From Opitutales bacterium (GTDB taxonomy: Bacteria > Verrucomicrobiota > Verrucomicrobiia > Opitutales > UBA2987), in contig CBDDEL010000016.1 of the NCBI GenBank assembly GCA_965226885.1, forward strand, positions 512,001 through 576,000: a DNA stretch of 64,000 nucleotides. Direction: 5' to 3'. A model generated the notes under the pieces. The model was not told where the DNA came from and made no database searches. It saw only the letters and a list, made by a program, of their open reading frames with translations. Positions within the stretch are counted from its first letter, which is position 1. Every line of letters starts with the position of its first letter. Shown here in pieces: positions 1 through 16,860 of this stretch. Made by a program: the position numbers and the translations under genes.

Positions 1-156
1 GATGGCAACTGGAAAAAGAATTCCTGCCAAGACAGCGATTATGGCGATTACCGAGAGCAGTTCGACCAGGGAGAACGCTCCTCGTCCCCAACGGAGGCAT
101 GTATCGTTTCGGCAGGGATTAAGGCGTGGATAGCAGGTTGTCGGCGGTGGATTCAT
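1..156 (-). CDS. Prepilin-type N-terminal cleavage/methylation protein (5' part; runs off window start)
   Basis: Manual translation of the minus strand from ATG at 156 gives ...RGAFSLVELLSVIAIIAVLAGILFPVAI, a type IV prepilin motif. The start codon is uncertain. Confidence 0.75.
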   Translation of the reverse strand, partial: MNPPPTTCYPRLNPCRNDTCLRWGRGAFSLVELLSVIAIIAVLAGILFPVAI

Positions 157-796
157 TTTCAAAATAGTCTGCGGCGAAAATGCCGTTCGCGGGCAAGGCC
201 GGACCGAGTGCGCCATCCGGCCCGATGGACATCAGGATGTATCCGGGCCGCTGCCAATCCTGGGGCGAGGGATTTTCGCCGATTGTTTTGTATTGGTAAA
301 TATAAGGAGCGCCCCAGGGATCGATGAGGTAATTTTCTGCAAAACCCTGGTCCAGAGACAGCAATGGGCGGTTGCCAGAGGGGATCGGCTGGTGAGCCGT
401 TTGAAACTGTGAAATTTCGATAAAATGCCTTCCCTTGGCGCTGGTCAACGGATCGCTACCGGCCAGGAACCGGCCGCTGTTATCCGCATTAGGCTGAAAT
501 CCGGCGGTCGGGCCGCGATTGCCGATGAGGGCGGCATAGAGTTCGCGGGAGCCGTCGCTCCCGGCGTCGGCATAAATCCAGGGATAATCGCCATAATAGG
601 CTTTATAAGATTCCAGGGCCTGCGTTAGAAGGACCAATTGGCCCACCGCTTTGTCGCGGGCGGATCTTCTCTGCAAACCCTCTGAAATACCAATTGCCAG
701 CCCTGCCAGAATAAGGAGAAACCCCATCACCAAGAGTAATTCAAAAAGGGTAAAAGCGGACTTATTTTCCGGGCGCGGGTCGCACATTGCGGACAT
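119..796 (-). CDS. Type II secretion pseudopilin (GspG-like) with prepilin N-terminus
   Basis: SAFTLFELLLV prepilin motif; ALESYKAYYGDYP and LIDPWGAPYIY motifs of GspG-like pseudopilins. Confidence 0.8.
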   Translation of the reverse strand: MSAMCDPRPENKSAFTLFELLLVMGFLLILAGLAIGISEGLQRRSARDKAVGQLVLLTQALESYKAYYGDYPWIYADAGSDGSRELYAALIGNRGPTAGFQPNADNSGRFLAGSDPLTSAKGRHFIEISQFQTAHQPIPSGNRPLLSLDQGFAENYLIDPWGAPYIYQYKTIGENPSPQDWQRPGYILMSIGPDGALGPALPANGIFAADYFENESTADNLLSTP

Positions 797-926: not shown

Positions 927-1069
927 ATGAAAAATAGATTCATATAACCGCCCCAGGAACTCTTTTCAAAATGGATCCATGGGCGTTGCCTAACGGCAAA
1001 TTATGACACGTAAAGATGTGGTGTATTGACGTTTGAAAATAAAAAACCGCCGAAGTTCTCTAGGATCGG

Positions 1070-1723
1070 TTAGATTTCGTCTCCCCAAATGGCTTTAATC
1101 TTCTGCTTGCCGAGCATCTGCTCCGGCGTATAGCCGCCTCGCATGTGACGCGGGCCCGGATACCCGACCACTTTCCAGCCAATGTAATCGCGGTTGCCGC
1201 CGTACTTCGGATCGGCAAGGAAGGCGATAATTGTGTGTGTGCGGAGCGTCCCGAAAAACTCCTCCGGTTTGACATCGCCATCGGGCCAGCCGTTGGCCTC
1301 ACCCAATTCGAGGGCGATGAGCACCGCGTCCTGCTGATCGGGCGTGAGCTCGATAAAGGCAGTGCCATAGCGTTCTCGGGACACCGCATCCAGGCCCGGC
1401 AGACCCTTCTCATAGATCGATCGCAGCTCAGCGTCTTCATGCGCGAGCGCTTTGTCGATGAAGTTCACACAGTTCGCTTCGATAGCGCCCGGCTCGTGAT
1501 CGGCAGGGATGATGCGGCCGGTGATCGCCTCCACCGTCCTCCACTCGAAGTTGCTCAACACCTCCGGCTCACTGGATTCCTGCGCAGCACTCAAAGCGAG
1601 CGGCCGCGGCATATTCCAGAGCACCCAGAAGGCACCTCCGTAGAGGGCGCTCTGGGCTACGAACTCGCGGCGAGAGACCCGCCGCGGTTTCAATGTCTTT
1701 TTCCTGGATTGGCGTGTTGTCAT
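1070..1723 (-). CDS. Gluconate 2-dehydrogenase subunit 3 family protein (Tat substrate)
   Basis: SRREFV twin-arginine signal; RIIPAD..PGA, FLADPKYGGNRDYIGWKVVGYPG motifs; overlaps the stop of the GMC gene. Confidence 0.88.
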   Translation of the reverse strand: MTTRQSRKKTLKPRRVSRREFVAQSALYGGAFWVLWNMPRPLALSAAQESSEPEVLSNFEWRTVEAITGRIIPADHEPGAIEANCVNFIDKALAHEDAELRSIYEKGLPGLDAVSRERYGTAFIELTPDQQDAVLIALELGEANGWPDGDVKPEEFFGTLRTHTIIAFLADPKYGGNRDYIGWKVVGYPGPRHMRGGYTPEQMLGKQKIKAIWGDEI

Positions 1724-2678
1724 AAGTTACCTTTACTCCCCTCGGTCACGAAATAGTCCCCAACCCTATAGGCGTTTGCAAGGATCGTTAGCGTTGGGTT
1801 GTAGCCGCCCGAGGTCGGGAAGCAACTTCCGTCCACTACCCAGAGATTCTTCACGTCGTGACTGCGACACCCACGATTAAGGACCGAACGCTTGGGATCA
1901 GTACCTATTCGGCACGTCCCGTGTAGGTGCGAGCTACCCTTCATCGGCTGACCCTGGGTGAGCGGGAAAGGGATCCACTTCTCGACGGCACCAGCCGCAT
2001 CTGCGAACTCCGACATTCGCTCAGCATACCAGGCGCTCATGGCAAGGTCGTTGGGATGCTGGTGATGAGTGATGCGCGGTACCGGAAGTCCCCATGCGTC
2101 CTTTACCTCGGGATCGAGATCCATACGGTTTTCCTCCATCGGAAGGTCTTCGAGGACGCCGTGCAAGCTCACGGTTCGCGGAAAAGTGCGTAGGAAGTCT
2201 TTGTATTCCTGCCCCCACGTCCGGTGGAGGCCAGGATACGACTGCTGAAACAGCGCGTACATCAGCGGCTGCCTTGCTGGGATGTTCGCTTCGACGACAA
2301 CGCCGCCTCGGATGAATCCGCGCTTCGGGTCACTAGCATGCAAGTCATCGAAGGCGGCATGGGTTTCGAGCCCTGTGAACCCATGTGCCAACTCGTCTAT
2401 AGTGAAGGCCACGATCGGAAAGAGGTGATAGGTCAGGTTGCGGCCAACGAGATCGTTTGAATTCGCGAGGCCGTCGGGAAAAGAGCTGGATGTCGACATG
2501 AGCAATAGGTGTGGCGTACCGACTGCGTTACCACATACGATGATGTGCCGAGCGAACACTTCACGCTCCTCTCTGAAAATCTGGTCGATATAGCGTACAC
2601 TCCGGGCGCGGCCGTCTCTTCCTAGCGTGATCTCGAAGGCCAATGCGCTAGGCCGCAGGTCGAGGCGGCCTGTAGCTA
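1720..2678 (-). pseudogene. GMC oxidoreductase, C-terminal part (IS-interrupted)
   Basis: GLANSNDLVGRN, HLHGTCRIG, NLWVVDGSCFPTSGGYNPTLTI motifs; joins in frame with 7674-8372 once the IS is removed. Confidence 0.9.
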
Positions 2679-2877
2679 GAGGCTGTCCCAAAAGGGTGAT
2701 TTTTGCGAGGGCTTTTGATAGGCGCTCATTTTAGAGGTATTTGCATTTGGGAGAGTATCAACTTTGCTCTCCTATGACGTTAGGATACTGGTTTTGGGGT
2801 CCGGTTGCCTGGTTTTCTTTGTATGAGCCGACAGTAAGGCTGTGAAAAAGTATTGTCCTTGCTTTTCCGCACTCTAG

Positions 2878-4464
2878 CCCGGATATTTCATGAAGGGTAA
2901 AGTTTGGCTCGTAAGGGTAAAGTTTGGCTCGTTATTGCTATTGGAGATGGATTTCTTTGTATTTTGGGCGGATCGTCTTGATTTTGAGGTGTTTTTCAGG
3001 GTGTAGAGACACTTCCCCCTTTCCCCCATTGGTTCGGTAGCGCCGGGGGCAGCGCCAATGCGCCCTTTAGGTTGGCACCAACCGGCGGGCCGCATGGTTG
3101 AAAAGACTGGCCCATGGATAACTTTCACTTAGATGAAAGTGAATCGTTCGGGTGTTGCGCACGATTACCGCTCCGATCTTGATTAATTTTAGCCGTAGAC
3201 TGTGGCATTGGAGCCGCGCCCACTTCGTCCCTTTTAATGCGAACCGGCGCAAGGCTTCCATCAAGGTGTAGGCCAGCCCCGACAAGAGCAATCGCCACTG
3301 GTTGGCCCACCATTTATGCGCGCTGGTGCGTTCGCTGAACAATTGCATCTGTTCCTTGATCCGGTTCTCCATCTCACCGCGGCCACAGTATACTTTGTCG
3401 TAAAGCTCTTGGGGATCGCCCTGCAGGTTCGTCACCACGAAGCGCGGGTTGGACCCCTGTGCGGTGTGTTCGGCTTTGTGGATGATAAGGCGTTGGCGCC
3501 GCCACGATTTTGCCCCATACTCGAAGTGCTGAAACAGCCGTTGCTTTTTGCCGCTACCCTCGAACCATTGTTTGGCTTGCTCCTGCAACTGCCGGGCCGC
3601 TTGCTGCAAGCGTGCATGGCGGGCCGTTCCCACTATAAAATAAACCTCGTTGCGCTCGCACCACGAGAGAATCCGATCCCGGCAGAATCCGCTGTCGGCA
3701 CGCCAAATAATCCGCGTATGGGGCCAGCTTTGGCGAATCCGTTTAACCAGCAATTTGAGGATGGCCCCGGCATGCTTGCTCGCATCGATCTTGCTGGGCC
3801 GCAGGTAGGCCACCAGAAGCTGATCGCCGCAAAAAACATACAGCGGCAAAAAACAGTAATGATCATAATAACCGTGGAAAAAACGTCCCTCCTGGAGCCC
3901 GTGCACCGGATTGTCGGTGGCGTCAAAGTCCAGGATGATCTCTTCGGGTTCCTCGGCAAAGGATCCCATGAACTGTTCGACCAGCAACTCGTTCAGGGCA
4001 AAGGCTGCCCGCCGATCCTGCCCGTTTTCAAAACGACACAAAGTCGGCGCGCTGGCCAACGCTTCAGTGCGCCCCGTTACCGTTTGCAACAAAGGATCGC
4101 GGCGCAGGGTGTCAAAGTCGTTCAAATCCTCATAGCCCGCCACCAGCCCGTAAACGCGCTGCCGGATCATGGCCAGCATCTCATGGCGCACTTTGCCCTT
4201 CTGCCGTTTGTCTACTAATTGCCGGGCCGCTTGCTCGGTCAAGCCCAACTGCCGATCCACTTCCCGGATCAAAAGCAGCCCGGCATCCGAAGTAACCTCA
4301 CCGCCCTTAAAATCAACCCGCACACGGCGGCCTTTTACCCTTGTCAACTGTAGTTCTAATTGTTTACTTTTTGTCATCGCTGATATTGCTTTAATGTTTA
4401 ATCTATCCTGCTGTATATCAGCAGATAAGCATATCAGCGATACTTTTTTTATGAAATTTCCGGG
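2878..4464 (-). mobile_element. IS1380-family element, isoform A
   Basis: Ends CCCGGATATTTCAT / ATGAAATTTCCGGG; CTAG on both flanks. Confidence 0.93.
3067..4377 (-). CDS. IS1380-family transposase (436 aa)
   Basis: FKGGEVTSDAGLLL, ILDFDATD, RADSGF, YCGRGEMENRIKE motifs. Confidence 0.95.
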   Translation of the reverse strand: MTKSKQLELQLTRVKGRRVRVDFKGGEVTSDAGLLLIREVDRQLGLTEQAARQLVDKRQKGKVRHEMLAMIRQRVYGLVAGYEDLNDFDTLRRDPLLQTVTGRTEALASAPTLCRFENGQDRRAAFALNELLVEQFMGSFAEEPEEIILDFDATDNPVHGLQEGRFFHGYYDHYCFLPLYVFCGDQLLVAYLRPSKIDASKHAGAILKLLVKRIRQSWPHTRIIWRADSGFCRDRILSWCERNEVYFIVGTARHARLQQAARQLQEQAKQWFEGSGKKQRLFQHFEYGAKSWRRQRLIIHKAEHTAQGSNPRFVVTNLQGDPQELYDKVYCGRGEMENRIKEQMQLFSERTSAHKWWANQWRLLLSGLAYTLMEALRRFALKGTKWARLQCHSLRLKLIKIGAVIVRNTRTIHFHLSESYPWASLFNHAARRLVPT

Positions 4465-5773
4465 CTAGCGCCGCCGCTTTGGTTTTTAGTTCGTCTTGCT
4501 GGGCCAGCATCTTGGCTACTTTCCATAGGTTGTGCGAGAGTACCGACCAGGCTACGCTGATCGAGCGGTTGGCAAAGCCTTTGCTGCGCAACCGCCCGGC
4601 CTGCCAGCGATTCTTCAATACCCCGATCCGCCCTTCGGTGCTGGCCCGGCGCTTTTGCAATTGTCTGAACAGTGGTTCCTCCATCCGTTTTTTCAACTGC
4701 TTCGGATCGCGTGGACAGAGCGCGTCGTAGATTCCCTCCTGGGCTAACTGCCGGCGGGCCCGCTGGGAGGCAAATCCCCGGTCCGCGCACATGGCCGCTA
4801 TGGGTTCTTCCAGGTTGAAGCGGTTCTGTCTTTGCAGACTCTCTTGCATTTGTTCATTTTCGCTTGGAGTTCGGCTGCCGTAGAGTTTCCAGTCCAGCAG
4901 GTACCCTTCAACGCTTTCTCCCAAAAACAGGGTGTTGCCGAACTCGACCTCTTGGCCCGCTTTACCTCGCACAATCACCTGCACATCGAGTTCGTAAACA
5001 CTCAAGACTTTCTCTGCGTTTTTCACCTGGCGGCCGCCAATGATCCGCTCGTGCGCCTGTTTGATGACCACCGGGATTTGCTCGCTCATGCGCTCCATCC
5101 GGGCGAGGATCTGTTGGACCTGTTTTTCGCTGTAATCGCTTTGCTCCCAGCAGGCTTGCAATAATTCCCGGTGACTGCGGGCATGCTCCCCGATCCGTTT
5201 GAGCAGCTTTTTCATCTGCCTCAAGATACCCTTGCGCTGCCGCGCGCTGTCCTTTCGCCGCCGGCTGTGGGTCATCTGTATGCACAGCCGATTCATCTGC
5301 CGAGCCAAGGGCTCCGGTTCGATCGGCATGCGATGGCGCAAACCGGCCTTCTCGCGGATCAGCCGGATCGCTTTGAGCAACGTGCCGGCTACATCCTTGA
5401 GTAATACCCAGTCCGTCGGCCAATGAATGTTAGCCTCCAAACAGGTGCCGTCGATCAGGCAAATGGTGGTGTCAATCGGCTTGTCCAATCCCACCTGCCG
5501 GGCCAGAAGGGCATCGCCCACCACCTCAGTCAAGGTCCGGTGCAAGGCCCTCAACTGCTCTTCGCTGAAAAACTTCGAGGCCCGCTCCAGGGTGCTTTTG
5601 GAGATGCCCCTGATGCCATCGATCTGCCGGACACGGCAAAAGTCGGCCAACAGATCGCTGCTGCCCAGAGCCCGCGACAAATGCCGAAACGAAATCCCTC
5701 CGAGCAGACGGCCCAGCGTATCCATGCGCAGTGCCTTGATGGCAAAACTGGCCCGCTGCCGCCGGGCCTTTAA
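4465..5773 (-). pseudogene. IS5/ISNCY-like DDE transposase, main fragment
   Basis: Matches residues ~60 to end of the 57375-58856 transposase; cut by IS1380 insertions. Confidence 0.88.
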
Positions 5774-7340
5774 CCCGGATATTTCATGAAGGGTAAAGTT
5801 TGGCTCGTTATTGCTATTGGAGATGGATTTCTTTGTATTTTGAGCAGATCGTCTTGATTTTTAGGTGTTTTTCAGGGTGTAGAGACACTGCCCCCTTTCC
5901 CCCATTGGTTCGGTAGTGCCGGGGGCAGCACCAATGCACCCTTTAGGTTGGCACCAATCGGCGGGCCGCATGGTTGAAAAGACTGGCCCAAGGACAACCC
6001 TCACTTAGGTGAAAGTGAATCGTTCGGGTGTTGCGCACGATGACCGCTCCGATCTTGATTAATTTGAGCCGCAGGGTGTGGCATTGGGCCCGCGCCCACT
6101 TCGTCCCTTTTAAGGCTAACCGGCGCATGGCTTCCATCAAGGTGTAGGCCAGCGCCGACAAGAGCAATCGCCACTGATTGGCCCACCATTGATGGGCGCT
6201 GGTGCGCTCGCTGAACAATTGCATCTGTTCCTTGATTCGGTTCTCCATTTCACCGCGGCCACAGTATACCTTGTCGTAAAGCTCCTGGGGATCGCCCGGC
6301 AGGTTCGTCACCACGAAGCGCGGGTTGGACCCCTGTGCGGTGTGTTCGGCTTTATGGATGACCAACCGCAGCCATCGCCACGAATCGGCAGCATAGACGA
6401 AGTCCTGGAATAACCGTTGTTTTTTACCCCTTAGTTCGAACCATTCTTTGGCCTGCTTTTGCAACTGCTGGGCGTCTTGCTGCAAGCGTGCATTGCGAGC
6501 CATCCCCACGATGTAACTAACTTCGTTGCGGTCACACCAAGAGAGTATCCGGTCTCGACAAAATCCACTGTCGGCGCGCCAAATAATCCGCGTACGGGGC
6601 CAGCTTTGGCGAATCCGTTTAACCAGCAATTTGAGGATGGCCCCGGCATGCTTGCTGGCATCGATCTTGCTCGGCCGCAGGTAGGCCACCAGCAGCTGAT
6701 CACCGCAAAAAACATATAGCGGCAGAAAACAGTAATGATCATAATAACCGTGGAAAAAACGTCCCTCCTGGAGCCCGTGCACCGGATTGTCGGTGGCGTC
6801 AAAGTCCAGGATGATCTCTTCGGGTTCCTCGGCAAAAGAGCCCATGAACTGTTCGACCAACAGCTCGTTTACCGCAAAGGCCGCCCGCCGATCCTGCCCG
6901 TTTTCAAAACGACACAAAGTCGGCGCGCTGGCCAACGTTTCAATGCGCCCCGTTACCGTTTGCAACAATGGATCGTGGCGCAGGGTATCAAAGTCGTTCA
7001 AATCCTCATAGCCCGCCACCAGCCCGTAAACGCGCTGCCGCAGCATCCCCAATACCTCATGGCGTACTTTGCCCTTCTGCCGTTTGTCCACTAACTGTCG
7101 GGCCGCTCGTTCGGTCAAGCCCAACTGCCGATCCACTTCCCGGATCAAAAGCAGTCCGGCATCCGAAGTAACCTCTCCGCCCTTGAAATCAACCCGCACA
7201 CGGCGGCCTTTTACCCTTGTCAACTGTAGCTTTAATTGTTTACCTTTTGTCATCGCTGATATTGCTTTAATTATTGATCTATCCTGCTGTATATCAGCAG
7301 TTAAGCATATCAACGATACTTTTTTTACGAAATATCCGGG
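5774..7340 (-). mobile_element. IS1380-family element, isoform B
   Basis: Ends CCCGGATATTTC / GAAATATCCGGG; flanks TTAA (left) and TTAG (right). Confidence 0.93.
5943..7253 (-). CDS. IS1380-family transposase, isoform B
   Basis: Same motifs as isoform A with a divergent C-terminal patch; start set at MTKGKQ by alignment with isoform A. Confidence 0.93.
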   Translation of the reverse strand: MTKGKQLKLQLTRVKGRRVRVDFKGGEVTSDAGLLLIREVDRQLGLTERAARQLVDKRQKGKVRHEVLGMLRQRVYGLVAGYEDLNDFDTLRHDPLLQTVTGRIETLASAPTLCRFENGQDRRAAFAVNELLVEQFMGSFAEEPEEIILDFDATDNPVHGLQEGRFFHGYYDHYCFLPLYVFCGDQLLVAYLRPSKIDASKHAGAILKLLVKRIRQSWPRTRIIWRADSGFCRDRILSWCDRNEVSYIVGMARNARLQQDAQQLQKQAKEWFELRGKKQRLFQDFVYAADSWRWLRLVIHKAEHTAQGSNPRFVVTNLPGDPQELYDKVYCGRGEMENRIKEQMQLFSERTSAHQWWANQWRLLLSALAYTLMEAMRRLALKGTKWARAQCHTLRLKLIKIGAVIVRNTRTIHFHLSEGCPWASLFNHAARRLVPT

Positions 7341-7518
7341 TTAGACCCATTGGCTGCCACCCCTCCAAGGCCAGCTCAATGGCCTGCGATTCCACCTCCG
7401 AGTCGATCAGCAGCCGATCGATTCGATCAATGGTGGCGCGGAAGTTATCGTAATCGAGGCACCGGTCGACCACAGTTAAAGCTGGACGCAGGAGGCATTG
7501 GATGGCTATATTTTTCAT
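7341..7518 (-). pseudogene. IS5/ISNCY-like transposase, N-terminal fragment
   Basis: MKNIAIQCLLRP...PMGL matches the N-terminus of the intact copy. Confidence 0.88.
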
Positions 7519-7673
7519 AGAAAGGGCTATATTGATTTTCGCTAACTCAATTATAGAACCCTTTTTTGGCCGGATCGAGCAAAAACTTGCTCTTTCCGGC
7601 TCTTTTTATCAACGTCATCCAGTTGACTATCATCCAGTTGACTATAAAATCTTTATATTTTTGGGACAGCCTC

Positions 7674-8372
7674 TAGCTAGCGCTTTCGGGATCGAGATGG
7701 CAAACGTTGTGCCTTTGGCCCCAATCGGGCAGCCGTAGCTAGAGCAGGTGCCACCGTATATACATGCCGGGCGCCCCCCTTGTGGGCGCGAGTTTATGGC
7801 CATGGGAGTCGGGAAGGGGTGATAGCCGAGCTTCCTTGCGCCACGGGCAAAGCGGACGCTGCCGGTGCGGTCCGGATGCGGTGGGTTGGGATAGCCGCGC
7901 TTGCGGGGAGAGCCAAAGGGGTTTGCGGTCGCATCCCCCGACACCCCGAACTCCCACTCGGCCCGCTCGTAGTAGGGTTCGATCTCGTCATAATCGAAGG
8001 GCCAATCAGCCAGGCTCGCACCGGGAACGGGACCTTCCATGGAGAGCACTTTAAACTCATCGGGCCGAAAACGCCACGACCAAGTCGCCCAATGGAGCAT
8101 CGTCCCACCCACACAATAAGCCACCCTGTTGAAGCGACTCGTTTCAGTTGGGCTGTCCTCGTCGTAGCGCCAAGTTTCGACCTGGTCCGGCGAGAAGAGT
8201 TCGTCCCGTACGACCATGTGGAGTTCGTCGTCGCTGAACTGTGAGGGCTGGAGGAATGGGCCCCGCTGAAGAGCGACCACCCGAAACCCCGCCGCGGTTA
8301 GCTCCTGGATCATGACCCCACCGCCGGCTCCAGTGCCAATCACGCAAACGTCGAACTCATCTTTCTGGCCAT
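7674..8372 (-). pseudogene. GMC oxidoreductase, N-terminal FAD-binding part
   Basis: FDVCVIGTGAGGG Rossmann motif, VGGTMLHW, CIYGGTCSSYGCPIGAK. The likely ATG at 8372 is out of frame by one base. Confidence 0.9.
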
Positions 8373-8397: not shown

Positions 8398-8463
8398 CCC
8401 TAACGTCTGAGCTCTGCTGCGTACCGGTAGCGTTCGAGGCCTTCAAGAACTTGATCGAAGGGA
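8398..8463 (-). other. Partial attC-like site (right half plus stem), split by IS1380
   Basis: Minus strand reads GCAGAGC-TCAGAC-GTTAGGG, 25 nt before the GMC ATG; the stem continues at 10839-10853. Confidence 0.5.
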
Positions 8464-10006
8464 CTAGCCCGGATATTTCATGAAGGGTAAAGTTTGGCTC
8501 GTTATTGCTATTGGAGATGGATTTCTTTGTATTTTGGGCGGATCGTCTTGATTTTGAGGTGTTTTTCAGGGTGTAGAGACACTTCCCCCTTTCCCCCATT
8601 GGTTCGGTAGCGCCGGGGGCAGCGCCAATGCGCCCTTTAGGTTGGCACCAACCGGCGGGCCGCATGGTTGAAAAGACTGGCCCATGGATAACTTTCACTT
8701 AGATGAAAGTGAATCGTTCGGGTGTTGCGCACGATTACCGCTCCGATCTTGATTAATTTTAGCCGTAGACTGTGGCATTGGAGCCGCGCCCACTTCGTCC
8801 CTTTTAATGCGAACCGGCGCAAGGCTTCCATCAAGGTGTAGGCCAGCCCCGACAAGAGCAATCGCCACTGGTTGGCCCACCATTTATGCGCGCTGGTGCG
8901 TTCGCTGAACAATTGCATCTGTTCCTTGATCCGGTTCTCCATCTCACCGCGGCCACAGTATACTTTGTCGTAAAGCTCTTGGGGATCGCCCGGCAGGTTC
9001 GTCACCACGAAGCGCGGGTTGGACCCCTGTGCGGTGTGTTCGGCTTTGTGGATGATAAGGCGTTGGCGCCGCCACGATTTTGCCCCATACTCGAAGTGCT
9101 GAAACAGCCGTTGCTTTTTGCCGCTACCCTCGAACCATTGTTTGGCTTGCTCCTGCAACTGCCGGGCCGCTTGCTGCAAGCGTGCATGGCGGGCCGTTCC
9201 CACTATAAAATAAACCTCGTTGCGCTCGCACCACGAGAGAATCCGATCCCGGCAGAATCCGCTGTCGGCACGCCAAATAATCCGCGTATGGGGCCAGCTT
9301 TGGCGAATCCGTTTAACCAGCAATTTGAGGATGGCCCCGGCATGCTTGCTCGCATCGATCTTGCTGGGCCGCAGGTAGGCCACCAGAAGCTGATCGCCGC
9401 AAAAAACATACAGCGGCAAAAAACAGTAATGATCATAATAACCGTGGAAAAAACGTCCCTCCTGGAGCCCGTGCACCGGATTGTCGGTGGCGTCAAAGTC
9501 CAGGATGATCTCTTCGGGTTCCTCGGCAAAGGATCCCATGAACTGTTCGACCAGCAACTCGTTCAGGGCAAAGGCTGCCCGCCGATCCTGCCCGTTTTCA
9601 AAACGACACAAAGTCGGCGCGCTGGCCAACGCTTCAGTGCGCCCCGTTACCGTTTGCAACAAAGGATCGCGGCGCAGGGTGTCAAAGTCGTTCAAATCCT
9701 CATAGCCCGCCACCAGCCCGTAAACGCGCTGCCGGATCATGGCCAGCATCTCATGGCGCACTTTGCCCTTCTGCCGTTTGTCTACTAATTGCCGGGCCGC
9801 TTGCTCGGTCAAGCCCAACCGCCGATCCACTTCCCGGATCAAAAGCAGCCCGGCATCCGAAGTAACCTCACCGCCCTTAAAATCAACCCGCACACGGCGG
9901 CCTTTTACCCTTGTCAACTGTAGTTCTAATTGTTTACTTTTTGGTAGTGTTAACATTTTGAATGTTTAAGCTGTACTTTTTAGCGTGATTATGTTGTGAA
10001 CTGGGA

Positions 10007-10270
10007 ATGGTCCATATCACAGTAAAATGTCCTCAATGCGGAAGCGATCACATCATCAAGCACGGCAAGGATCCGAAAGGGGTTCAGAAGTATCGATGCA
10101 AGGGGTGTGGTTATCAGTTTCGGCTTCACCCCAAAAGTCGTGAGCATCCTCCGGCGCTGGTCAAGCAGGTGCTCCGTGCGCACCAAAACCGGATGAGCCT
10201 GCGTGCCATTTACCGTACCTTCGGGGTAGCCCCAAAGACGGTCATCGAATGGATTAAAAAAAAGTCCTGA
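10007..10270 (+). CDS. insA: IS1 InsA-like protein (Zn ribbon plus HTH)
   Basis: CPQCGS...YRCKGC; A8G slippery run at 10256-10264. Confidence 0.88.
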   Translation: MVHITVKCPQCGSDHIIKHGKDPKGVQKYRCKGCGYQFRLHPKSREHPPALVKQVLRAHQNRMSLRAIYRTFGVAPKTVIEWIKKKS

Positions 10271-10272
10271 GT

Positions 10273-10731
10273 TTGCCGAAGCTGGAGTCCACTCTGCTTG
10301 CCCGCCAGTGTAGTGATGTGCTGGAACTGGACGAGGTGTGGTCATTCTGGGGCGATAAGCGTTCGGGGCAGGTATGGCTATGGGTAGCCTTGTGTCGACG
10401 TACCCGACAGGTCGTCGGGTTTTCTCTGGGTGATCGTAGCGATCAAACGTGCTGGCAGTTGTATCACAACATCGCCCAGCCCTATCGCGACTGTGCCACC
10501 GTAAGCGATTACTGGGAAAGCTACGACAAGGTTTTCCCTCACAACAGCGCCAGCGGGAAACAATCCGGCCAAACCGCCCATATCGAACGCTGGAACAATA
10601 CCTTGCGACAGTCCCTGTCACGCTATGTGCGTAAAACGCTGTCATTCTCGAAGTCTTTGGTCATGCATTTTCGCGTCCTGTGCTTGTTCATCTGGGAATA
10701 CAACAGCAATATCAAATATTCGTCATGTTAA
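10273..10731 (+). CDS. insB: IS1 InsB-like catalytic domain (probably -1 frameshift fusion)
   Basis: LELDEVWSF, SDYW, TAHIERWNNTLRQ motifs. Confidence 0.88.
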   Translation: MPKLESTLLARQCSDVLELDEVWSFWGDKRSGQVWLWVALCRRTRQVVGFSLGDRSDQTCWQLYHNIAQPYRDCATVSDYWESYDKVFPHNSASGKQSGQTAHIERWNNTLRQSLSRYVRKTLSFSKSLVMHFRVLCLFIWEYNSNIKYSSC

Positions 10732-10850
10732 CACTACCTACTTTTTGTCATCGCTGATATTGCTTTAATGTTTAATCTATCCTGCTGTATATCAGCAGAT
10801 AAGCATATCAGCGATACTTTTTTTATGAAATTTCCGGGCTAACCCTGCCG

Positions 10851-11412
10851 GTGGTTAACTCCTTTATATATGGAGAGGAAAAGAAAATAGAGAACACGGA
10901 ACGCTCCAATCGCCTGGTCAACCGCGGACGGGACCTGCGGAAAATCGGCGACCTGCAAGGCTCCCTGCACGATCTCAATGAAGCCGTTCGCATCAATCCC
11001 TATAATACCGCGGCCTACGTGCAAAGAGGCATCACAAGAGCCCAAACAAAGGATTTCGACGGTTCCTATTTCGATTTCGAGAAAGTGCTGGAAATAGATC
11101 CGGGAGATATTACAGCCCTCTTCGGTCGCGCCGTCATGCACGATATTACAGCCCTCTTCGGTCGCGCCGTCATGCACGAGATGAAAAATGACATCAATGG
11201 GGCCATGCAGGATTTTAATACCGTGCTGCGTTTGAAACCCGACCATAACATGGCCACCTTTAAACGTGGAAACCTCAAGCTCGGCCTCGGCCTTTATAAA
11301 GAGGCGATTGAAGATTATACAAAGGTCATCGATCGAAGACCAAACACTACCACTGTTCTCTCGGCCCGGGGGATCGCGAAAATGCAAACCGGAGATCTGA
11401 CTGGCGCCTTAG
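10851..11412 (+). pseudogene. TPR-repeat protein fragment
   Basis: Repeated A(Y/L)xxRG...A..DF..V(L/I) TPR units; 3' end cut by IS1380; in-frame 36-bp duplication at 11106-11177. Confidence 0.8.
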
Positions 11413-12994
11413 CCCGGATATTTCATGAAGGGTAAAGTTTGGCTCGTTATTGCTATTGGAGATGGATTTCTTTGTATTTTGAGCAGATCGTCTTGATTTT
11501 TAGGTGTTTTTCAGGGTGTAGAGACACTGCCCCCTTTCCCCCATTGGTTCGGTAGTGCCGGGGGCAGCACCAATGCACCCTTTAGGTTGGCACCAATTAG
11601 GTTGGCACCAATCGGCGGGCCGCATGGTTGAAAAGACTGGCCCAAGGATAACTCTCACTTAGGTGAAAGTGAATCGTTCGGGTGTTGCGCACGATGACCG
11701 CTCCGATCTTGATTAATTTGAGCCGCAGGGTGTGGCATTGGGCCCGCGCCCACTTCGTCCCTTTTAAGGCTAACCGGCGCATGGCTTCCATCAAGGTGTA
11801 GGCCAGCGCCGACAAGAGCAATCGCCACTGATTGGCCCACCATTGATGGGCGCTGGTGCGCTCGCTGAACAATTGCATCTGTTCCTTGATTCGGTTCTCC
11901 ATTTCACCGCGGCCACAGTATACCTTGTCGTAAAGCTCCTGGGGATCGCCCGGCAGGTTCGTCACCACGAAGCGCGGGTTGGACCCCTGTGCGGTGTGTT
12001 CGGCTTTATGGATGACCAACCGCAGCCATCGCCACGAATCGGCAGCATAGACGAAGTCCTGGAATAACCGTTGTTTTTTACCCCTTAGTTCGAACCATTC
12101 TTTGGCCTGCTTTTGCAACTGCTGGGCGTCTTGCTGCAAGCGTGCATTGCGAGCCATCCCCACGATGTAACTAACTTCGTTGCGGTCGCACCAAGAGAGT
12201 ATCCGGTCTCGACAAAATCCACTGTCGGCGCGCCAAATAATCCGCGTACGGGGCCAGCTTTGGCGAATCCGTTTAACCAGCAATTTGAGGATGGCCCCGG
12301 CATGCTTGCTGGCATCGATCTTGCTCGGCCGCAGGTAGGCCACCAGCAGCTGATCACCGCAAAAAACATATAGCGGCAGAAAACAGTAATGATCATAATA
12401 ACCGTGGAAAAAACGTCCCTCCTGGAGCCCGTGCACCGGATTGTCGGTGGCGTCAAAGTCCAGGATGATCTCTTCGGGTTCCTCGGCAAAGGAGCCCATG
12501 AACTGTTCGACCAACAGCTCGTTTACCGCAAAGGCCGCCCGCCGATCCTGCCCGTTTTCAAAACGACACAAAGTCGGCGCGCTGGCCAACGTTTCAATGC
12601 GCCCCGTTACCGTTTGCAACAATGGATCGTGGCGCAGGGTATCAAAGTCGTTCAAATCCTCATAGCCCGCCACCAGCCCGTAAACGCGCTGCCGCAGCAT
12701 CCCCAATACCTCATGGCGTACTTTGCCCTTCTGCCGTTTGTCCACTAACTGTCGGGCCGCTCGTTCGGTCAAGCCCAACTGCCGATCCACTTCCCGGATC
12801 AAAAGCAGTCCGGCATCCGAAGTAACCTCTCCGCCCTTGAAATCAACCCGCACACGGCGGCCTTTTACCCTTGTCAACTGTAGCTTTAATTGTTTACCTT
12901 TTGTCATCGCTGATATTGCTTTAATTATTGATCTATCCTGCTGTATATCAGCAGTTAAGCATATCAACGATACTTTTTTTACGAAATATCCGGG
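11413..12994 (-). mobile_element. IS1380 isoform B
   Basis: Near-identical to 5774-7340; flanks TTAG / CTAG; 15-bp duplication at 11582-11611. Confidence 0.93.
11597..12907 (-). CDS. IS1380-family transposase, isoform B
   Basis: Intact ORF with IS1380 motifs. Confidence 0.93.
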   Translation of the reverse strand: MTKGKQLKLQLTRVKGRRVRVDFKGGEVTSDAGLLLIREVDRQLGLTERAARQLVDKRQKGKVRHEVLGMLRQRVYGLVAGYEDLNDFDTLRHDPLLQTVTGRIETLASAPTLCRFENGQDRRAAFAVNELLVEQFMGSFAEEPEEIILDFDATDNPVHGLQEGRFFHGYYDHYCFLPLYVFCGDQLLVAYLRPSKIDASKHAGAILKLLVKRIRQSWPRTRIIWRADSGFCRDRILSWCDRNEVSYIVGMARNARLQQDAQQLQKQAKEWFELRGKKQRLFQDFVYAADSWRWLRLVIHKAEHTAQGSNPRFVVTNLPGDPQELYDKVYCGRGEMENRIKEQMQLFSERTSAHQWWANQWRLLLSALAYTLMEAMRRLALKGTKWARAQCHTLRLKLIKIGAVIVRNTRTIHFHLSESYPWASLFNHAARRLVPT

Positions 12995-13199
12995 CTAGGG
13001 GCTAATTAGGGGTAGATGGGTAGGTTTATTCTGATCCGTTGACGGACTCATTGCTATGGTCCCTCTCTCCCAGAGTCAAGCTATTCGCTTTGCTAAGGGA
13101 AAAACTTTTCCCTTATATCGGGGCTGATACCTCTCAGATCGGTAAAACATCTTCCGACAAACACATTTTCAACGTCCTGCACGCTCCATCAACAGAGGA

Positions 13200-13256
13200 G
13201 TCTAACGTCAGTATTGACGGGAGCTTTTAGGCGTACGGCCCAAAGCATAGTTCGAC
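13200..13256 (-). other. Degenerate attC site (57 bp)
   Basis: Minus strand: GTCGAAC 4 nt after the pilin stop, then CGTCAAT-ACTGAC-GTTAGAC. L-box pairing is poor. Confidence 0.6.
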
Positions 13257-13260
13257 TTGT

Positions 13261-13665
13261 TTACTTGGCGGCTGGTCGCTGATTTTCGTGAATACAGACA
13301 TGAGCGATCGACGCGGTATGCTGTCCCTTGCACTGGAGGTGGTATTTCAGGTTGCCACTCTTAACGCTCCAGTCGTAAGGGCCGTCAATGGGGCATTCGT
13401 AGGGCTGGTTGAGAAAGCCTTGCGTCACCATGTCATTGATTTGGTCAGGATATAGTCCTTTGGGGAAAGCGTATAGTTCCAGCGCGTCTTGGTAGATTCT
13501 CAAGTTGTTGAGGCAAACGTTAAGTTGTGAAGTCTGACGTATTTTTTGAAAAGCGATCATGGCCATAGCGGCGAGCAGGCCAATGATCACCACAACAATC
13601 ATGATTTCCACAAGAGTGAATGCGGTTGTTCTGGACGCGCGGTATTTGGATCCAATGTGCTTCAT
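13261..13665 (-). CDS. Prepilin-type (type IV pilin/pseudopilin) protein
   Basis: AFTLVEIMIVVVIIGLLAAMA motif; CLNNLR and CPIDGPY motifs; Cys-rich C-terminus. Confidence 0.88.
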   Translation of the reverse strand: MKHIGSKYRASRTTAFTLVEIMIVVVIIGLLAAMAMIAFQKIRQTSQLNVCLNNLRIYQDALELYAFPKGLYPDQINDMVTQGFLNQPYECPIDGPYDWSVKSGNLKYHLQCKGQHTASIAHVCIHENQRPAAK

Positions 13666-13785
13666 GCTTTAATTAAGACAATACGGATGGCATGATTTCC
13701 CGCAAATTGAGATTCTCGTATTTGACGTGTACTGGATTTGTTGGACACGGGATTCTCTTATATTCATTGTTTATTGATTAGTGTG

Positions 13786-14703
13786 TCAGGCGGCTTGTTT
13801 TGGTAAAGGGTTTTGTTTTCTCGTTGCCCCCCATGGGGGGCAAATATTTTCCTCGAATTGGACTGGGCTTTGGTAACTCAGAGAGGAATGTTTGCGATAT
13901 CGGTTGTAGAAGATTTCCACGTATTCGAAGACAGTTGATCGCAGTTCGCGCTCGTCGGCAAAGTGGCGGCCTCGAATCGTGCTGGTCTTGAAGCGGCCGT
14001 AGAACGATTCCATGGCCGCGTTGTCGTAGCAGTTGCCTTGGGCGCTCATGCTCGGCTTCATGCCTAGTTCAGAGACCAGCCTCTGATAGTCGTCGCTGGC
14101 GTAGGGGCTGCCCCGATCGCTGTGATGAATAATCCCGGTGCGCAGTGTGCCGCGGGTCATGGCCGCGGCTTTGAGGGCCTTGCCAACCAGCTTCGCGTCG
14201 TTGTGGTTGGAAACGCTCCAGCCCAGCAGGCGTCGGCTGAACAGGTCCATCACCGTGGCCAAGTACATCCAACCGGCCAGGGTCCGTAGGTAGGTCGTGT
14301 CCGCCACCCAGACCTCGTCGATATGGGTCGGCTGGCCATGCTTTTTAAGCACATTGGGGCTGTAACCATAGGGATGGTTACTGTTGGTTTTTAATGGCTT
14401 AAAGCGTTTACTCTGGGTGCTTTTGATTCCCATTTCACGCATCAGACGCAGAGCCCGGTCACGGCCGCAATCGATGCCCTCATCATCCTTCAGATGGCGG
14501 TGCATTGGCCGATGCCCATAGCGGCCCTTGGCCTCTTTGTGTACCTTCAGGATCGCCCCCTTGATTCCCTCGTCCTCGATCCGCCGGGCCGAGGGCGCTC
14601 GGTGCCTCCAGCAGTAATAGCCACTGCGACAAATCCCCATCGCCGAGCATATTTCCTCGATCTTGAAGCGCCCCTCGTTGTCTTTGACAAACTGGTACTT
14701 CAT
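13786..14703 (-). CDS. IS3 OrfB (integrase-core DDE)
   Basis: WVADTTY, HHSDRGSPY, GNCYDNAAMESF; its ATG overlaps the OrfA stop (ATGA). Confidence 0.93.
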   Translation of the reverse strand: MKYQFVKDNEGRFKIEEICSAMGICRSGYYCWRHRAPSARRIEDEGIKGAILKVHKEAKGRYGHRPMHRHLKDDEGIDCGRDRALRLMREMGIKSTQSKRFKPLKTNSNHPYGYSPNVLKKHGQPTHIDEVWVADTTYLRTLAGWMYLATVMDLFSRRLLGWSVSNHNDAKLVGKALKAAAMTRGTLRTGIIHHSDRGSPYASDDYQRLVSELGMKPSMSAQGNCYDNAAMESFYGRFKTSTIRGRHFADERELRSTVFEYVEIFYNRYRKHSSLSYQSPVQFEENICPPWGATRKQNPLPKQAA

Positions 14704-15008
14704 TGTTCGTCCTTGGCAAAGTAGCCCACCGTTTTTTTTAGTATCTGGTTGATCCGCTCCGAGCGGCGCAGCTCTTTGCGAAGACGATCTATCTCGGCCG
14801 CCATCTCCTTCGGACTGCTCTGTCGCTTTGAGGTGGCTTCGCCCTGCTGATCGTCCAGATAGAGCCTCTTCCACCTATACAATTGGTTGGTGTTGACCCC
14901 AAGTTTGGTCGATACCTCGGTGGCGCTCAGACCATCGAGTATCATCAGTTGAACTGCCTCATTTTTGAACTCTATACTGCGTCTTCTTCCCATGCTTCGA
15001 TTCTCCAT
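14700..15008 (-). CDS. IS3 OrfA (HTH)
   Basis: EFKNEAVQL...LGVNTNQLYRW; ends ILKKTVGYFAK. Confidence 0.92.
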   Translation of the reverse strand: MENRSMGRRRSIEFKNEAVQLMILDGLSATEVSTKLGVNTNQLYRWKRLYLDDQQGEATSKRQSSPKEMAAEIDRLRKELRRSERINQILKKTVGYFAKDEQ

Positions 15009-15054
15009 TTAGGAGAATCTCGTGTCCACTTTTTCCAGTGCACATCATATTTGA

Positions 15055-15091
15055 GTCGAACTACTATATGTATGCGGCAAATACGCCGCCT
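15055..15091 (-). other. Integron core site (attI-like or truncated attC) upstream of the pilin cassette
   Basis: Minus strand ...GCGGCGTATTTGCCGCATACATATAGTA-GTTCGAC; the core is exactly complementary to GTCGAAC after the pilin gene. Confidence 0.5.
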
Positions 15092-15198
15092 ATTAAATTA
15101 AGGCTATTGAAAGATTCGGCAGGGGAATATTAGCTGCAAAAGGCTCAAAGGAAGATAAGTCGACCTGTTTCAGGGTAAAGTTAGCGCCAATATTTATG

Positions 15199-15300
15199 AA
15201 ACCGCAGATTTGAGGATATCGCTTCGCTCGGTACACAGATAAACGCTGATGGGGAGGGTAATTATTGGGTGTTAATTAACGAATATCTGTGTTTATCCGT
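15199..15300. repeat. Inverted pair of ~10-nt-unit repeats
   Basis: AACCGCAGAT...TACACAGATAAACGCTGAT followed by ATCTGTGTTTATCCGT. Confidence 0.5.
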
Positions 15301-15379
15301 TTTTTTGGGGTGAAAATGGGGGAAAAATGAATTTTTTTTCATGTTTATTCAAACGCATCAAACGGAGCCAACGTATCTA

Positions 15380-15408
15380 TTGCAAGTTTTCAGGATTTAT
15401 GTTATAGT
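15380..15408 (+). promoter_or_regulatory. Putative sigma70 promoter
   Basis: TTGCAA-17 nt-TATAGT with extended -10 TG. Confidence 0.45.
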
Positions 15409-15554: not shown

Positions 15555-15729
15555 GGGATGAACTTGCCTTGTATAAGCCGCCTCAATTACCTGATTGAAG
15601 CCAGCCCAAGGCGAATTGCAGGAGGTTTAGGGTTTCTAGAGAAAAGCCTGTCCTCTACACTCACGGATTATTCCGGTCTTTCCGATTTTCCAATATATTT
15701 TCATTACATTTCTTTTCATTTTATTGCGA

Positions 15730-16860
15730 ATGCAAAAAAACGATACATCGCCCCAGGAGGAGCTTGTTGAAGGCATCCTGGAGCCCCAGCCAAATAAAGC
15801 GGGCCAGCTGATCAATCCGGCCCGCAATGGCCGCATGCGCCCTGACGACCCCTTTGTGCCCAGAGAATTGATCCGCCGTTTTAAAATTAACAAGGGCAGT
15901 TGGATATGCGCCAAGGCGCACCGGGACCCCCGTTTTCCCAATCCCAAGGTGCGCTACGTGGATACCATCGACGGTTATCCGGTGGACCAGCGAAAACGGG
16001 AAATCCCATTTTCGCAGTTGACCACCATAACCCCGGATGAATGGCTGCAACTGGAAACCAAGGACGGGGCCATGACGGTGCGGGCGATTGATATGTTTTG
16101 CCCCATCGGCAAGGGGCAGCGGGGTCTCATCGTGGCGCCCCCGCGGACTGGAAAAACCATTATCCTGCGCGATATTGCCTTGGGTGTGCTTGAAAACCAT
16201 CCGGAATGCCATGTCATGATCCTGCTGGTGGATGAGCGCCCGGAGGAAGTCACCGACCTGAAGCGGAGCGTACCCTGCGAAGTCTTCGCCTCCTCCAACG
16301 ACGAGGAAGTAATCAATCATTTGCGTATAGCCGATCTGGCCATCGAGCGGGCCAAAAGATTGGTCGAGGTGGGCAAAGACGTGGTCGTGCTGCTGGATTC
16401 GCTGACCCGGCTGGCCCGCGCCCACAACTCGGCCCGAGGTACCAGCGGGCGCACCATGACGGGTGGGCTGGACATTCGCGCACTGGAGAAACCGCGTCAA
16501 CTGTTCTCGGCGGCTCGCAATACGGAGGAAGCGGGCAGCTTGACCATTATGGCCTCGGCCCTTGTGGAAACGGGCAGCCGCATGGACGACCTGATTTTCC
16601 AGGAATTCAAAGGAACCGGCAACATGGAAATGGTCCTCGACCGCAAAGTGGCCGAACTGCGGATTTGGCCCGCCATGAATATCTCTTCTTCCGGAACCCG
16701 GCGGGAAGAACTCCTCCTGGAGCCTAAAATGCTGGATCGCTGCCATTTCTTTCGACGCGCGTTGGCCGGCATGAAGGTGGATGATGCGGCGGAAACAGCC
16801 ATCACACGTCTGGGGAAAACCAAAAACAACGCGGAGTTTCTGAATCTGATTAACCTCTAG
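15730..16860 (+). CDS. rho: Transcription termination factor Rho (short form)
   Basis: PIGKGQRGLIVAPPRTGKT, LLVDERPEEV, LDSLTRLARA, FKGTGNME, SGTRREELL. Confidence 0.95.
   Translation: MQKNDTSPQEELVEGILEPQPNKAGQLINPARNGRMRPDDPFVPRELIRRFKINKGSWICAKAHRDPRFPNPKVRYVDTIDGYPVDQRKREIPFSQLTTITPDEWLQLETKDGAMTVRAIDMFCPIGKGQRGLIVAPPRTGKTIILRDIALGVLENHPECHVMILLVDERPEEVTDLKRSVPCEVFASSNDEEVINHLRIADLAIERAKRLVEVGKDVVVLLDSLTRLARAHNSARGTSGRTMTGGLDIRALEKPRQLFSAARNTEEAGSLTIMASALVETGSRMDDLIFQEFKGTGNMEMVLDRKVAELRIWPAMNISSSGTRREELLLEPKMLDRCHFFRRALAGMKVDDAAETAITRLGKTKNNAEFLNLINL

Follow-up and report, generated by a model that had tools for sequence, protein, structure and literature searches.

The stretch of DNA analysed here, referred to below as the window, comprises 64,000 nucleotides of contig C16 (C16:512001-576000) from the genome of an Opitutales bacterium. 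The locus under study is described on the minus strand and contains the following features.

119..796, minus strand: first gene of a conserved pseudopilin operon, with a GspG-like N-terminus; a fixed flank, not cargo
988..1037, minus strand: distal junction of the variable region
1070..8343, minus strand: accessory cargo, namely a split GMC oxidoreductase gene and a gluconate 2-dehydrogenase subunit-3 family gene
8398..8438, minus strand: a 41-nt site (CTCGAAC ... GTTAGGG) singled out in the preliminary description
8464..12998, no strand assigned: composite insertion of two IS-A copies (DDE_Tnp_1_4) around a TPR gene fragment (10851-11435, plus strand)
13009..13199, minus strand: non-coding sequence following the pilin unit, present once in the genome and cut off by the IS composite
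13256-13200, minus strand: degenerate attC-like site of the pilin unit, with R'' GTCGAAC and R' GTTAGAC, the L stem (L''/L') being lost
13665-13261, minus strand: pilin-like ORF, 134 aa
15047-13723, minus strand: IS3-family element, 1325 bp, with orfA (15008-14700) and orfB (14874-13786)
15061-15055, minus strand: junction core GTTCGAC, the cassette start with a putative G|TT crossover
15063..15330, minus strand: attI-like block, diverged in sequence, with a hairpin and the CATATAGT motif in its final 27 nt (15089-15063)
15724..16860, plus strand: rho-like gene forming the opposite conserved flank

The rho-like flank is 78-88% identical across all four sister genomes, and the pseudopilin operon gene at 119..796 has orthologues of 84% identity in G004 and 76% in G003. 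The features singled out in the preliminary description, that is, the cores, the IS3 element with its 4-bp duplication, the pilin ORF and GTTAGAC, are all present, as are the three additional prepilin genes claimed for the window, which profile matches place at 119-796 (minus), at 55258-55731 (minus) and from position 78 (minus) off the left edge. Integron cores follow the consensus GTTRRRY/RYYYAAC, with R' corresponding to GTTRRRY. Four nucleotides behind the TAA of the pilin ORF lies GTCGAAC (13256-13250), the exact complement of the start core GTTCGAC (7 of 7 positions), followed 43 nt further on by GTTAGAC (13206-13200); the two complementary cores each deviate from the consensus at one position and the R' box fits it. 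Any particular 7-mer should occur 0.24 times in 4 kb of a single strand, and by our own arithmetic the chance of finding the exact core complement within 10 nt past the stop of the first ORF is p ~6e-4. Of the eight copies of the block that end in a GTT core (see below), just two have a complement directly behind the first ORF, the window copy and the one heading the array on contig C15; one further core complement, at the C11 copy, falls inside an IS3 copy.

The ends of the IS3 element, set by alignment of three copies within the window, are bounded by a 4-bp target duplication (AATA at 15051-15048 and 13722-13719; TATT on the plus strand), and the insertion point lies inside the leader between the attI-like site and the pilin gene, which measures 60 nt from GTTCGAC to the ATG once the element is subtracted. 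The allele free of the element is real: a 1070-nt contig from public run X4 joins position 13718 to 15048, omitting 1329 nt, that is, 1325 plus 4. No cassette-free joint with a long supporting side was found in the contigs of four sequencing runs. Several short-sided joints (sides of 22-29 nt, IS ends) were seen among the run contigs. Three IS types reach about 325, 165 and 142 copies in the genome, IS3 being the one with ~142. One IS-A copy of the composite insertion carries a further IS (9943-10738), and the entire 8464..12998 segment is found again at C6:24905-29438 with 99.87% identity. The GMC oxidoreductase gene (N-part 8343-7642, C-part 2691-1720) is interrupted by an IS-B with two nested IS-A copies (7679-2666), and the gluconate 2-dehydrogenase subunit-3 family gene (1723-1070) was found in one of the five genomes of the genus, that of the window (G000).

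The pilin-like ORF encodes a prepilin-type protein with a predicted type IV pilin/pseudopilin fold. Its N-terminal cleavage/methylation motif scores above the cut-offs of PF07963 (N_methyl; 24.5 versus 21.2 bits) and TIGR02532 (21 versus 16.3 bits), and F16 and E20 are invariant across 18 homologues. It resembles type IV pilins and T2SS pseudopilins in its class III signal peptide (F+1, E+5), in the long N-terminal helix spanning residues 18-69 and in its small beta-sheet head; in a Foldseek search with the AF2 model (pLDDT 89.7), each of the best 10 PDB matches was a type IV pilin or pseudopilin (probability 0.57-1.0, TM 0.36-0.59), with none reaching E<=0.001 (best 4e-3). The protein differs from these families in that it scores under the cut-offs of all named equivalogs, including GspG (TIGR01710; 36.4 versus 88.85 bits), has Ala at position -1 and belongs to a family whose C-terminal head contains four invariant Cys and four invariant His residues. 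The genomic context of homologues amounted to one distant locus on genome contigs and 80 loci kept on metagenome contigs, the latter all <=59% identical over N-terminal parts, corresponding to the generic N-terminal motif. The closer protein homologues P0002 and P0003 are 84% identical, and the names under which homologues are deposited indicate Opitutales/Puniceicoccales. No other pilin was seen among the cassettes, which otherwise encode a hydrolase, a transporter, GH43, GNAT and methyltransferase proteins; the exchangeable pilin supply for surface variation suggested in the preliminary description is accordingly unsupported.

The preliminary description stated that no integrase accompanies the gene, which is correct for the locus and not for the genome. 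None of the 54 window ORFs matches Phage_integrase, all 11 genomic matches to TIGR02249 (E<=0.001) lie outside C16:512001-576000, and the window yielded no match to an integron integrase or another tyrosine recombinase; a complete integron, in which intI shares its locus with one or more attC sites, is not what it carries. The single intI of the genome is located on contig C10 in two halves (135411-135911 and 138434-138907). Against TIGR02249, whose cut-off is 265 bits, these halves score 188.7 and 229.7 bits and align with model positions 1-156 and 159-312, respectively; the IstA/IstB ORFs between them belong to an IS21-type element that splits the gene. A copy of the block lies divergent from this intI, ~250 bp from its start codon, in the canonical place of an attI site. 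Six-frame searching of the whole genome revealed no intI remnant at E<=0.001 beside any other block. The four sister genomes, drafts that are 81-93% complete, contain blocks and yielded no intI match at E<=1e-30. In genome G006, an intact intI stands beside a cassette array.

The upstream site had been proposed to be attI-like, and comparison with its homologues bears this out. The last 27 nt of the window block match C10:135173-135199, adjoining intI, at 26 of 27 positions, and by position the block as a whole is orthologous to a complete block of sister species G004 (G004:C24:76231-76110); its left part, promoter-like by eye, is degraded with deletions. About 13 copies of the block, which range in size over ~150-260 bp, are present in this genome, and further copies were found in each of the four sister genomes searched. 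The three long copies (C10 beside intI, C17 and C15) are 90-92% alike over ~215-260 bp and lose all similarity after CATATAGTT. Likeness among the C10, C15, C17, G004 and window copies ends at the GTT of the junction core, and an imperfect inverted repeat, GCCTA-N8-TAGGC, surrounds the crossover at the block end, as seen directly in the family alignment. The C15 and C17 copies have additional upstream sequence in common. A simple scan detected no sigma-70-type promoter in the blocks. Of 15 copies inspected across five genomes belonging to the genus, six (C15, C12, C10:232463, G002:C40, G003:C346 and G004:C24) are followed on the same strand by a model-detected attC, the genome-wide background of matches to the attC models R2 and R3 being 7-8 per 5.5 Mb; downstream of the other nine, the lineage-built models detected none. 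At least six independent copies carry cassettes, two of them arrays of 2-4. The family shows what is expected of an attI site, a constant sequence up to the crossover followed by variable attC cassettes; the position between intI and the first cassette is occupied by the C10 copy and not by the one in the window.

In the canonical attC hairpin, the R boxes and the L boxes are paired and some bases are extrahelical. The three sites of the C15 array behind its block have canonical folds, and each of the three cassettes begins with a core exactly complementary to its own R'', a relation also seen (7 of 7) at G002:C40. The site of the pilin unit is degenerate. Its loop resembles the lineage attC consensus, but its minimum free energy fold consists of two local hairpins instead of the canonical structure; with the R boxes forced to pair, it reaches -6.6 kcal/mol (z -1.6), which 7.7% of inner shuffles equal, whereas all five reference attC sites fold canonically and, for four of them, 0 of 300 shuffles were as good. 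Covariance models were built from attC sites of this lineage, and R2 and R3 recover three to four attC sites in the G006 array beside the intact intI. The narrow model R1 has no match at the pilin site, and R2 (13.1 bits, E 0.57) and R3 (12.9 bits, E 0.49) match it at full length with ends exactly at 13256-13200, neither match being significant by itself at these E values for the window; it ranks second among the 10 R2 and the 9 R3 matches in the whole window, and non-standard pairs account for 6 of the 13 modelled. The attC claimed for the pilin gene would be a marginal site with the predicted ends, lacking the L''/L' stem and a match to R1. The preliminary description also extended a decayed array to the sites at 8398 and 988. 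The former, 41 nt long, neither folds as an attC nor matches R1-R3 and is unsupported as such; the latter likewise has no attC fold or model match, yet it does mark the distal junction by synteny, which with G004 resumes at GTTAGGC (994-988). Because these two sites lack attC folds and model matches, the rest of the proposed array is not established as cassettes. An arm-alignment attC score and a constrained-fold shape filter were discarded, as they did not separate the genome from reversed sequence, real and null scores being distributed alike, and missed known sites; with such home-made detectors only the first attC of C15 stood out. MAFFT misaligned the arms of attC sites of unequal length, and the alignments used were built from two collinear sites first and then guided by the model. 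Chaining of cassettes by exact 7-mers yielded one cassette in G008 and halted in G006 and G004. Positions 1-20000 of the window had no Rfam match at E<=1.

The orthologous locus differs among sister species. On the rho side of G004, a full block is followed by a 394-aa methyltransferase ORF and a 56-nt textbook attC (60-69 bits), and synteny with the window returns at GTTAGGC, the R' of that attC; the start core of this cassette is not complementary to its R''. One attC of G004 and one of G000 are 79% identical. G003 has neither block nor cassette at the locus. The pilin gene is missing from the orthologous locus in both species, and no orthologue was detected in the four sister genomes, the best DNA match being 73-85% identical over the N-terminal 53-120 nt only. 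The claim of a pilin gene with cassette-type boundaries is upheld, and it can be added that the locus varies in cassette content between species. By eye, the whole module of G000 and G004 may be bordered by a ~12-nt direct repeat (CGGTTTCAT-like), of which G003 may have a single copy.

Collectively, we consider it probable, at roughly 0.65, that the pilin-like gene represents a present or former integron cassette inserted at an attI-type G|TT between rho and the fixed pseudopilin operon. As judged from sequence, the locus would be a decaying, integrase-less integron platform, with the pilin gene as the first cassette behind the attI-like block. We infer that the junctions were made by IntI acting in trans: it would have placed circular cassettes into the platform, and such recombination would have left different cargo in each species at the same junction. 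During later decay, intI would have been split by the IS21-type element, the local block would have lost much of its left promoter-like part and the pilin attC its L''/L' stem; in this strain, IS3 would then have entered the 60-nt leader and nested IS copies would have broken the remaining array. The pilin unit is probably immobile by now and probably poorly expressed. In keeping the block at many chromosomal places without an adjoining integrase, this marine-type group shows how cargo may be scattered and fixed. More tentatively, and at somewhat less than even odds, this verrucomicrobial genus may run a distributed integron, in which about a dozen integrase-less attI platforms, possibly with a promoter, would each hold one to a few cassettes and be served by a single IntI in trans, the pilin unit being a decaying satellite.

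The alternative that fares best, although we regard it as unlikely, is insertion at a secondary site, whereby the block would be an ordinary regulatory or 5'-leader element ending in GTT, receiving off-target cassettes from IntI in the manner of attG sites, and the pilin unit would be isolated and SALIN-like. Cassette insertion outside att sites has been demonstrated (bioRxiv 10.1101/2022.09.11.507474), and both the nine block copies without a detected downstream attC and the presence of blocks in all four sister genomes where no intI was found would agree with it. However, the best-conserved block occupies the canonical attI position beside intI, the three long copies all break at the same GTT over their ~215-260 bp in common, the block end carries an inverted repeat around the crossover, and the number of independent copies with cassettes is far above what random GTT sites would give.

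We give slightly less credence again to the locus being the relic of a complete integron whose intI was deleted here, the other blocks representing remnants or IS-mediated duplications and the platforms never having been used in trans. Such a history is plausible in so far as intI loss and IS-driven rearrangement are listed among the origins of CALINs (PMC4889954), the genome is rich in IS, and the upstream sequence shared by the C15 and C17 copies is as expected after duplication. It accords poorly with the lack of any intI remnant at E<=0.001 by blocks other than that of C10 and with the mere ~500 bp that separate the window block from the rho upstream region conserved with G004. Furthermore, the cargo of G000 and G004 differs at the same junction, which requires recombination after the platform was in place. 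Least probable is an ordinary chromosomal pilin gene without integron history, its GTT/AAC symmetry and 27-nt match being coincidental or due to a shared leader hairpin. In its favour, genes of the prepilin type abound in the phylum (7220 database matches at E<=0.001; six paralogues in this genome), a pseudopilin operon adjoins and the attC-like site fails the fold test, but the exact complement right after the stop, the model match ending exactly as predicted, the absence of the gene from the orthologous locus of G003 and G004, with no orthologue found in the four sister genomes, and the positional orthology with a block that heads a textbook cassette all speak against it.

The IntegronFinder 2.0 paper (PMC9024848) reportedly treats CALIN and SALIN elements, that is, attC clusters or single attC sites without an integrase. 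CALINs are defined by at least two attC sites with no intI nearby (Cury et al. 2016, PMC4889954); the window falls outside this definition because it has one marginal site only (13200-13256), and the C15 and C9 loci of the same genome fall within it. Integrase-less clusters are common, and their origin is debated between intI loss, rearrangement and secondary-site insertion (PMC4889954). As in CALIN/SALIN elements, attC cassettes are found here without a nearby intI in a genome that encodes IntI elsewhere, IS lie in and around them, and their cargo is of uncertain adaptive value; unlike them, the units have at their head an attI-like block that can be recognised and that recurs, and, in contrast to CALINs, the pilin locus has fewer than two confident attC sites. 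Sedentary chromosomal integrons are resembled by the layout of the C10 copy, with intI divergent from the block and the first cassette starting from GTT, by same-strand ORFs with short spacers and by the mutual similarity of the attC sites of the lineage; the differences are that the platform recurs at many loci with short arrays (1-4 cassettes), that the sole intI is disrupted by an IS and that the window locus has none. Loot et al. showed experimentally that cassettes can be inserted outside att sites, expressed from nearby promoters and later excised (bioRxiv 10.1101/2022.09.11.507474). The present cassettes similarly lie outside a complete integron, beside host sequence that may provide expression, but attG sites are described in that preprint as very diverse, unlike att sites, whereas the receiving sequences here belong to a single conserved family that shares homology with the site beside intI. 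Literature searches for orphan, multiple or solitary attI sites and for pilin cassettes in integrons gave nothing relevant among the papers listed, which is not proof of absence.

The pilin itself is a modest case, a lineage-specific accessory gene of the pilin fold, probably acquired as a cassette and now stranded, which in this strain IS3 separates from its upstream region. Of broader significance is the block. The attI sites of most integrons are unknown (Cury et al. 2016, PMC4889954), for which reason an attI-like block forms no part of the CALIN definition and nobody checks whether integrase-less clusters keep one. Here, homology to the site beside intI makes an attI-type block recognisable, and this block recurs at many loci and across sister species, where the cargo behind the same junction differs. 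If this reading is true, a single integrase could supply numerous expression platforms, and some of the CALIN/SALIN population would consist of "satellite" platforms, not debris.

The pilin unit most likely derives from the insertion of gene cassettes by an integron integrase (IntI) at an attI-type platform without an integrase of its own, followed by decay, a reading to which we assign a probability of about 0.65. Reading of the sequence confirmed the minus-strand arrangement of cores, IS3 element and pilin ORF given in the preliminary description:

15061-15055, minus strand, junction core GTTCGAC
15047-13723, minus strand, IS3-family element with HTH_Tnp_1 and rve ORFs, its ends placed from an alignment of the window's three copies
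13665-13261, minus strand, pilin ORF of 134 aa
13256-13250, minus strand, GTCGAAC, 4 nt past the TAA of the pilin ORF
13206-13200, minus strand, GTTAGAC

The IS3 is bordered on both sides by a 4-bp duplication, AATA (TATT on the plus strand), and upon its removal GTTCGAC lies 60 nt upstream of the pilin ATG. This IS3-free allele is real: in a 1070-nt contig from the public sequencing run X4, 13718 directly abuts 15048, and the intervening 1329 nt (1325 + 4) are absent. Furthermore, 94-100% of the words sampled from the pilin stretch are present in public runs from three studies.

The upstream site had been called attI-like, and the call held: it matches, at 26 of 27 positions, the last 27 nt of a block adjoining the intI gene on contig C10 of the same genome (G000). 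The ~260 bp between that gene and the first downstream ORF are repeated on contigs C17 and C15 at 90-92% identity, and the three copies diverge completely immediately past CATATAGTT. More diverged copies share ~130-150 bp and end in TATAGTTAGGC or close variants; including these, the family numbers ~13 in G000, and each of the four sister genomes in the genus has copies as well. Comparison with other copies indicates that the left part of the block in the window is degraded, and promoter scans demonstrated no promoter in the block. The strongest rival explanation is an off-target insertion event with a conserved regulatory element as recipient, comparable to attG as described in a preprint (bioRxiv 10.1101/2022.09.11.507474).

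As stated previously, the window carries no integrase gene, and the genome search proposed at that time recovered a single, IS-split intI outside it, on C10. TIGR02249 matches two adjoining pieces there (model positions 1-156 and 159-312; 188.7 and 229.7 bits, with a cut-off of 265), separated by ~2.5 kb with IstA/IstB-like ORFs. Judged from these matches, G000:C10:135411-138907 is the only integron integrase gene of the genome, cleanly split (156/159) by an IS21-type element. No intI was found at E<=1e-30 in the four sister genomes, drafts that are only 81-93% complete. A second, less favored rival is that the pilin locus is a relic of a formerly complete integron.

On C15, the block is followed by genes for an alpha/beta hydrolase, an SNF transporter, a GH43 protein and a GNAT protein, separated by three sites (91, 137 and 58 nt). 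Each of these folds as a canonical attC hairpin in which the R boxes pair, the spacer stays unpaired and the L stem carries one extra base on its L'' side. In all three C15 cassettes the initial seven bases are exactly complementary to the R'' of that cassette, and the same holds in contig C40 of a sister genome (G002). Covariance models were built from the lineage's own sites, R1 from two collinear sites 79% identical, R2 and R3 by iteration. They also detect three to four sites in the array adjoining the intact intI of a same-family genome (G006), place a same-strand attC downstream of 6 of the 15 block copies examined in five genomes, and yield only 7-8 matches in 5.5 Mb genome-wide. By these signatures, the block heads real cassettes. 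A second integrase-less cluster (G000:C9:42184-45241) comprises a truncated GNAT gene, a small ORF and an ORF-less unit, with at least one attC that scores strongly (R1, 50 bits; R2/R3, 66.8-70 bits), two attC-like sites of odd geometry, and IS-A and IS3 copies at its bounds. Separately, the window contains a convincing attC at 49085-49148 on the minus strand (R3, 24.8 bits, window E 3.5e-4; recovered genome-wide too), directly behind an IS end and before an ORF truncated at ~48790 by an IS3 copy; it marks a second, unrelated cassette fragment.

The pilin's own site (13256-13200) lacks the attC fold, its minimum free energy structure being two local hairpins. Forced pairing of the R boxes gives -6.6 kcal/mol (z -1.6), equaled by 7.7% of shuffles; for four of five reference attC sites, none of 300 shuffles equals the fold energy. 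With filters off and a limit of E<=10, R1 matches nothing in the window. R2 scores 13.1 bits at the pilin site (E 0.57, rank 2 of 10 in the window) and R3 12.9 bits (E 0.49, rank 2 of 9); the two matches are full length, exactly 13256-13200 and on the correct strand. The R boxes are retained, as is the loop, which lies close to the lineage consensus, but 6 of the 13 modelled pairs are non-standard. We interpret the site as a degraded attC of this lineage's family, a score of this size being no proof alone. Chance resemblance is the weakest rival. The array was also said to continue to two further sites: that at 8398 (41 nt) has neither fold nor model match and is unsupported as an attC, and that at 988, equally devoid of both, stands only as a synteny junction.

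That junction emerges from a comparison of orthologous loci. Both flanks in the window, toward rho (15241-18000) and toward the pseudopilin operon (1-970), share 84-88% identity with contig C24 of sister genome G004, where the flanks enclose a full block, one 394-aa methyltransferase ORF and a 56-nt attC (60-69 bits), at whose GTTAGGC similarity to the window resumes. In sister genome G003 the flanks are ~100 nt apart, with neither block nor cassette; in the window they are separated by 14 kb. Following repeat removal, the unique sequence comprises 13009-13710 (the pilin unit), 7680-8452 and 1-2665, the latter two carrying a GMC oxidoreductase gene interrupted by IS-B, itself harboring two IS-A copies, plus a subunit-3 gene found in none of the sister genomes. 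Accordingly, the locus is a site of variable cargo that extends from the GTT of the block to the conserved GTTAGGC. At 8343-8400 (minus strand), the only possible start codon (ATG, GTG or TTG) of the GMC oxidoreductase frame that precedes or overlaps the dinucleotide-binding motif is a GTG inside that motif; the frame may begin at a non-canonical start codon or have a damaged one. The inserted module in G000 and G004 reaches ~220 nt past the last GTTAGGC (window 766-988), and a CGGTTTCAT-like 9-12-mer appears to flank it on both sides (766-988 and 15210-15330), occurring singly in the empty G003 site (G003:C134); the repeat may be a trace of the arrival of the whole platform. Upstream of rho, 15331-15415 belongs to an 85-nt repeat family with ~25 copies in G000 (73-94% identity), tens in G003 and G004, and no Rfam match at E<=1; a small RNA, a REP-like element and a MITE are candidates.

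The IS load of G000 is extreme (megablast HSP counts: IS-A, of the DDE_Tnp_1_4 type, ~325; IS-B ~165; IS3 ~142; the IS at 9943-10738 ~47), with four IS-A copies within window 2872-13006, and its genome measures 5.48 Mb versus 3.4-4.3 Mb in the four sister genomes. A 4.5-kb composite (IS-A, nested IS, TPR gene fragment, IS-A) occurs twice (window 8464-12998 and G000:C6:24905-29438; 99.87% identity), as if it had moved like a compound transposon.

The 134-aa pilin-like protein carries a prepilin N-terminal motif (PF07963, 24.5 bits; TIGR02532 above cut-off), yet no named equivalog among pilins or pseudopilins is matched above its cut-off. An AlphaFold model from 18 homologues (pLDDT 89.7) combines a long helix (18-69) with a small sheet. 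In a Foldseek search of the PDB, each of the top 10 matches is a type IV pilin or a pseudopilin (probability 0.57-1.0, TM 0.36-0.59), none at E<=0.001. Close homologues (~23; 53-84% identity) come almost all from short metagenomic contigs, and the source names of remoter ones point to Opitutales/Puniceicoccales. Within the family, invariant C51, C91, C112 and C124 and H109, H116, H122 and H126 (HVCIHE motif; residues 51-127; window 13261-13665) suggest that the head domain has disulfide bonds or a metal site. As first described, the window contains three further prepilin-type genes, at 119-796, at 55258-55731 and off the left edge at 78.

Collectively, IntI would have put cassettes in at the integrase-less attI-type platform, and decay would have comprised disruption of intI by IS21, degradation of the left part of the block, loss of the pilin attC stem, landing of IS3 in the leader, solely in the strain of the window, and break-up of the array by IS-A and IS-B. 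The suggestion that the pilin supplied surface variation has its sole backing in the gene's family. Among the papers listed by literature searches, none described attI platforms that are orphan or multiple, nor pilin cassettes, which does not prove that such descriptions are absent. The closest known systems are CALIN/SALIN elements (Cury et al. 2016, PMC4889954), here in a genome with a defective intI. The clusters differ from these in retaining a recognizable attI-like head, which is present in multiple copies and conserved between species.
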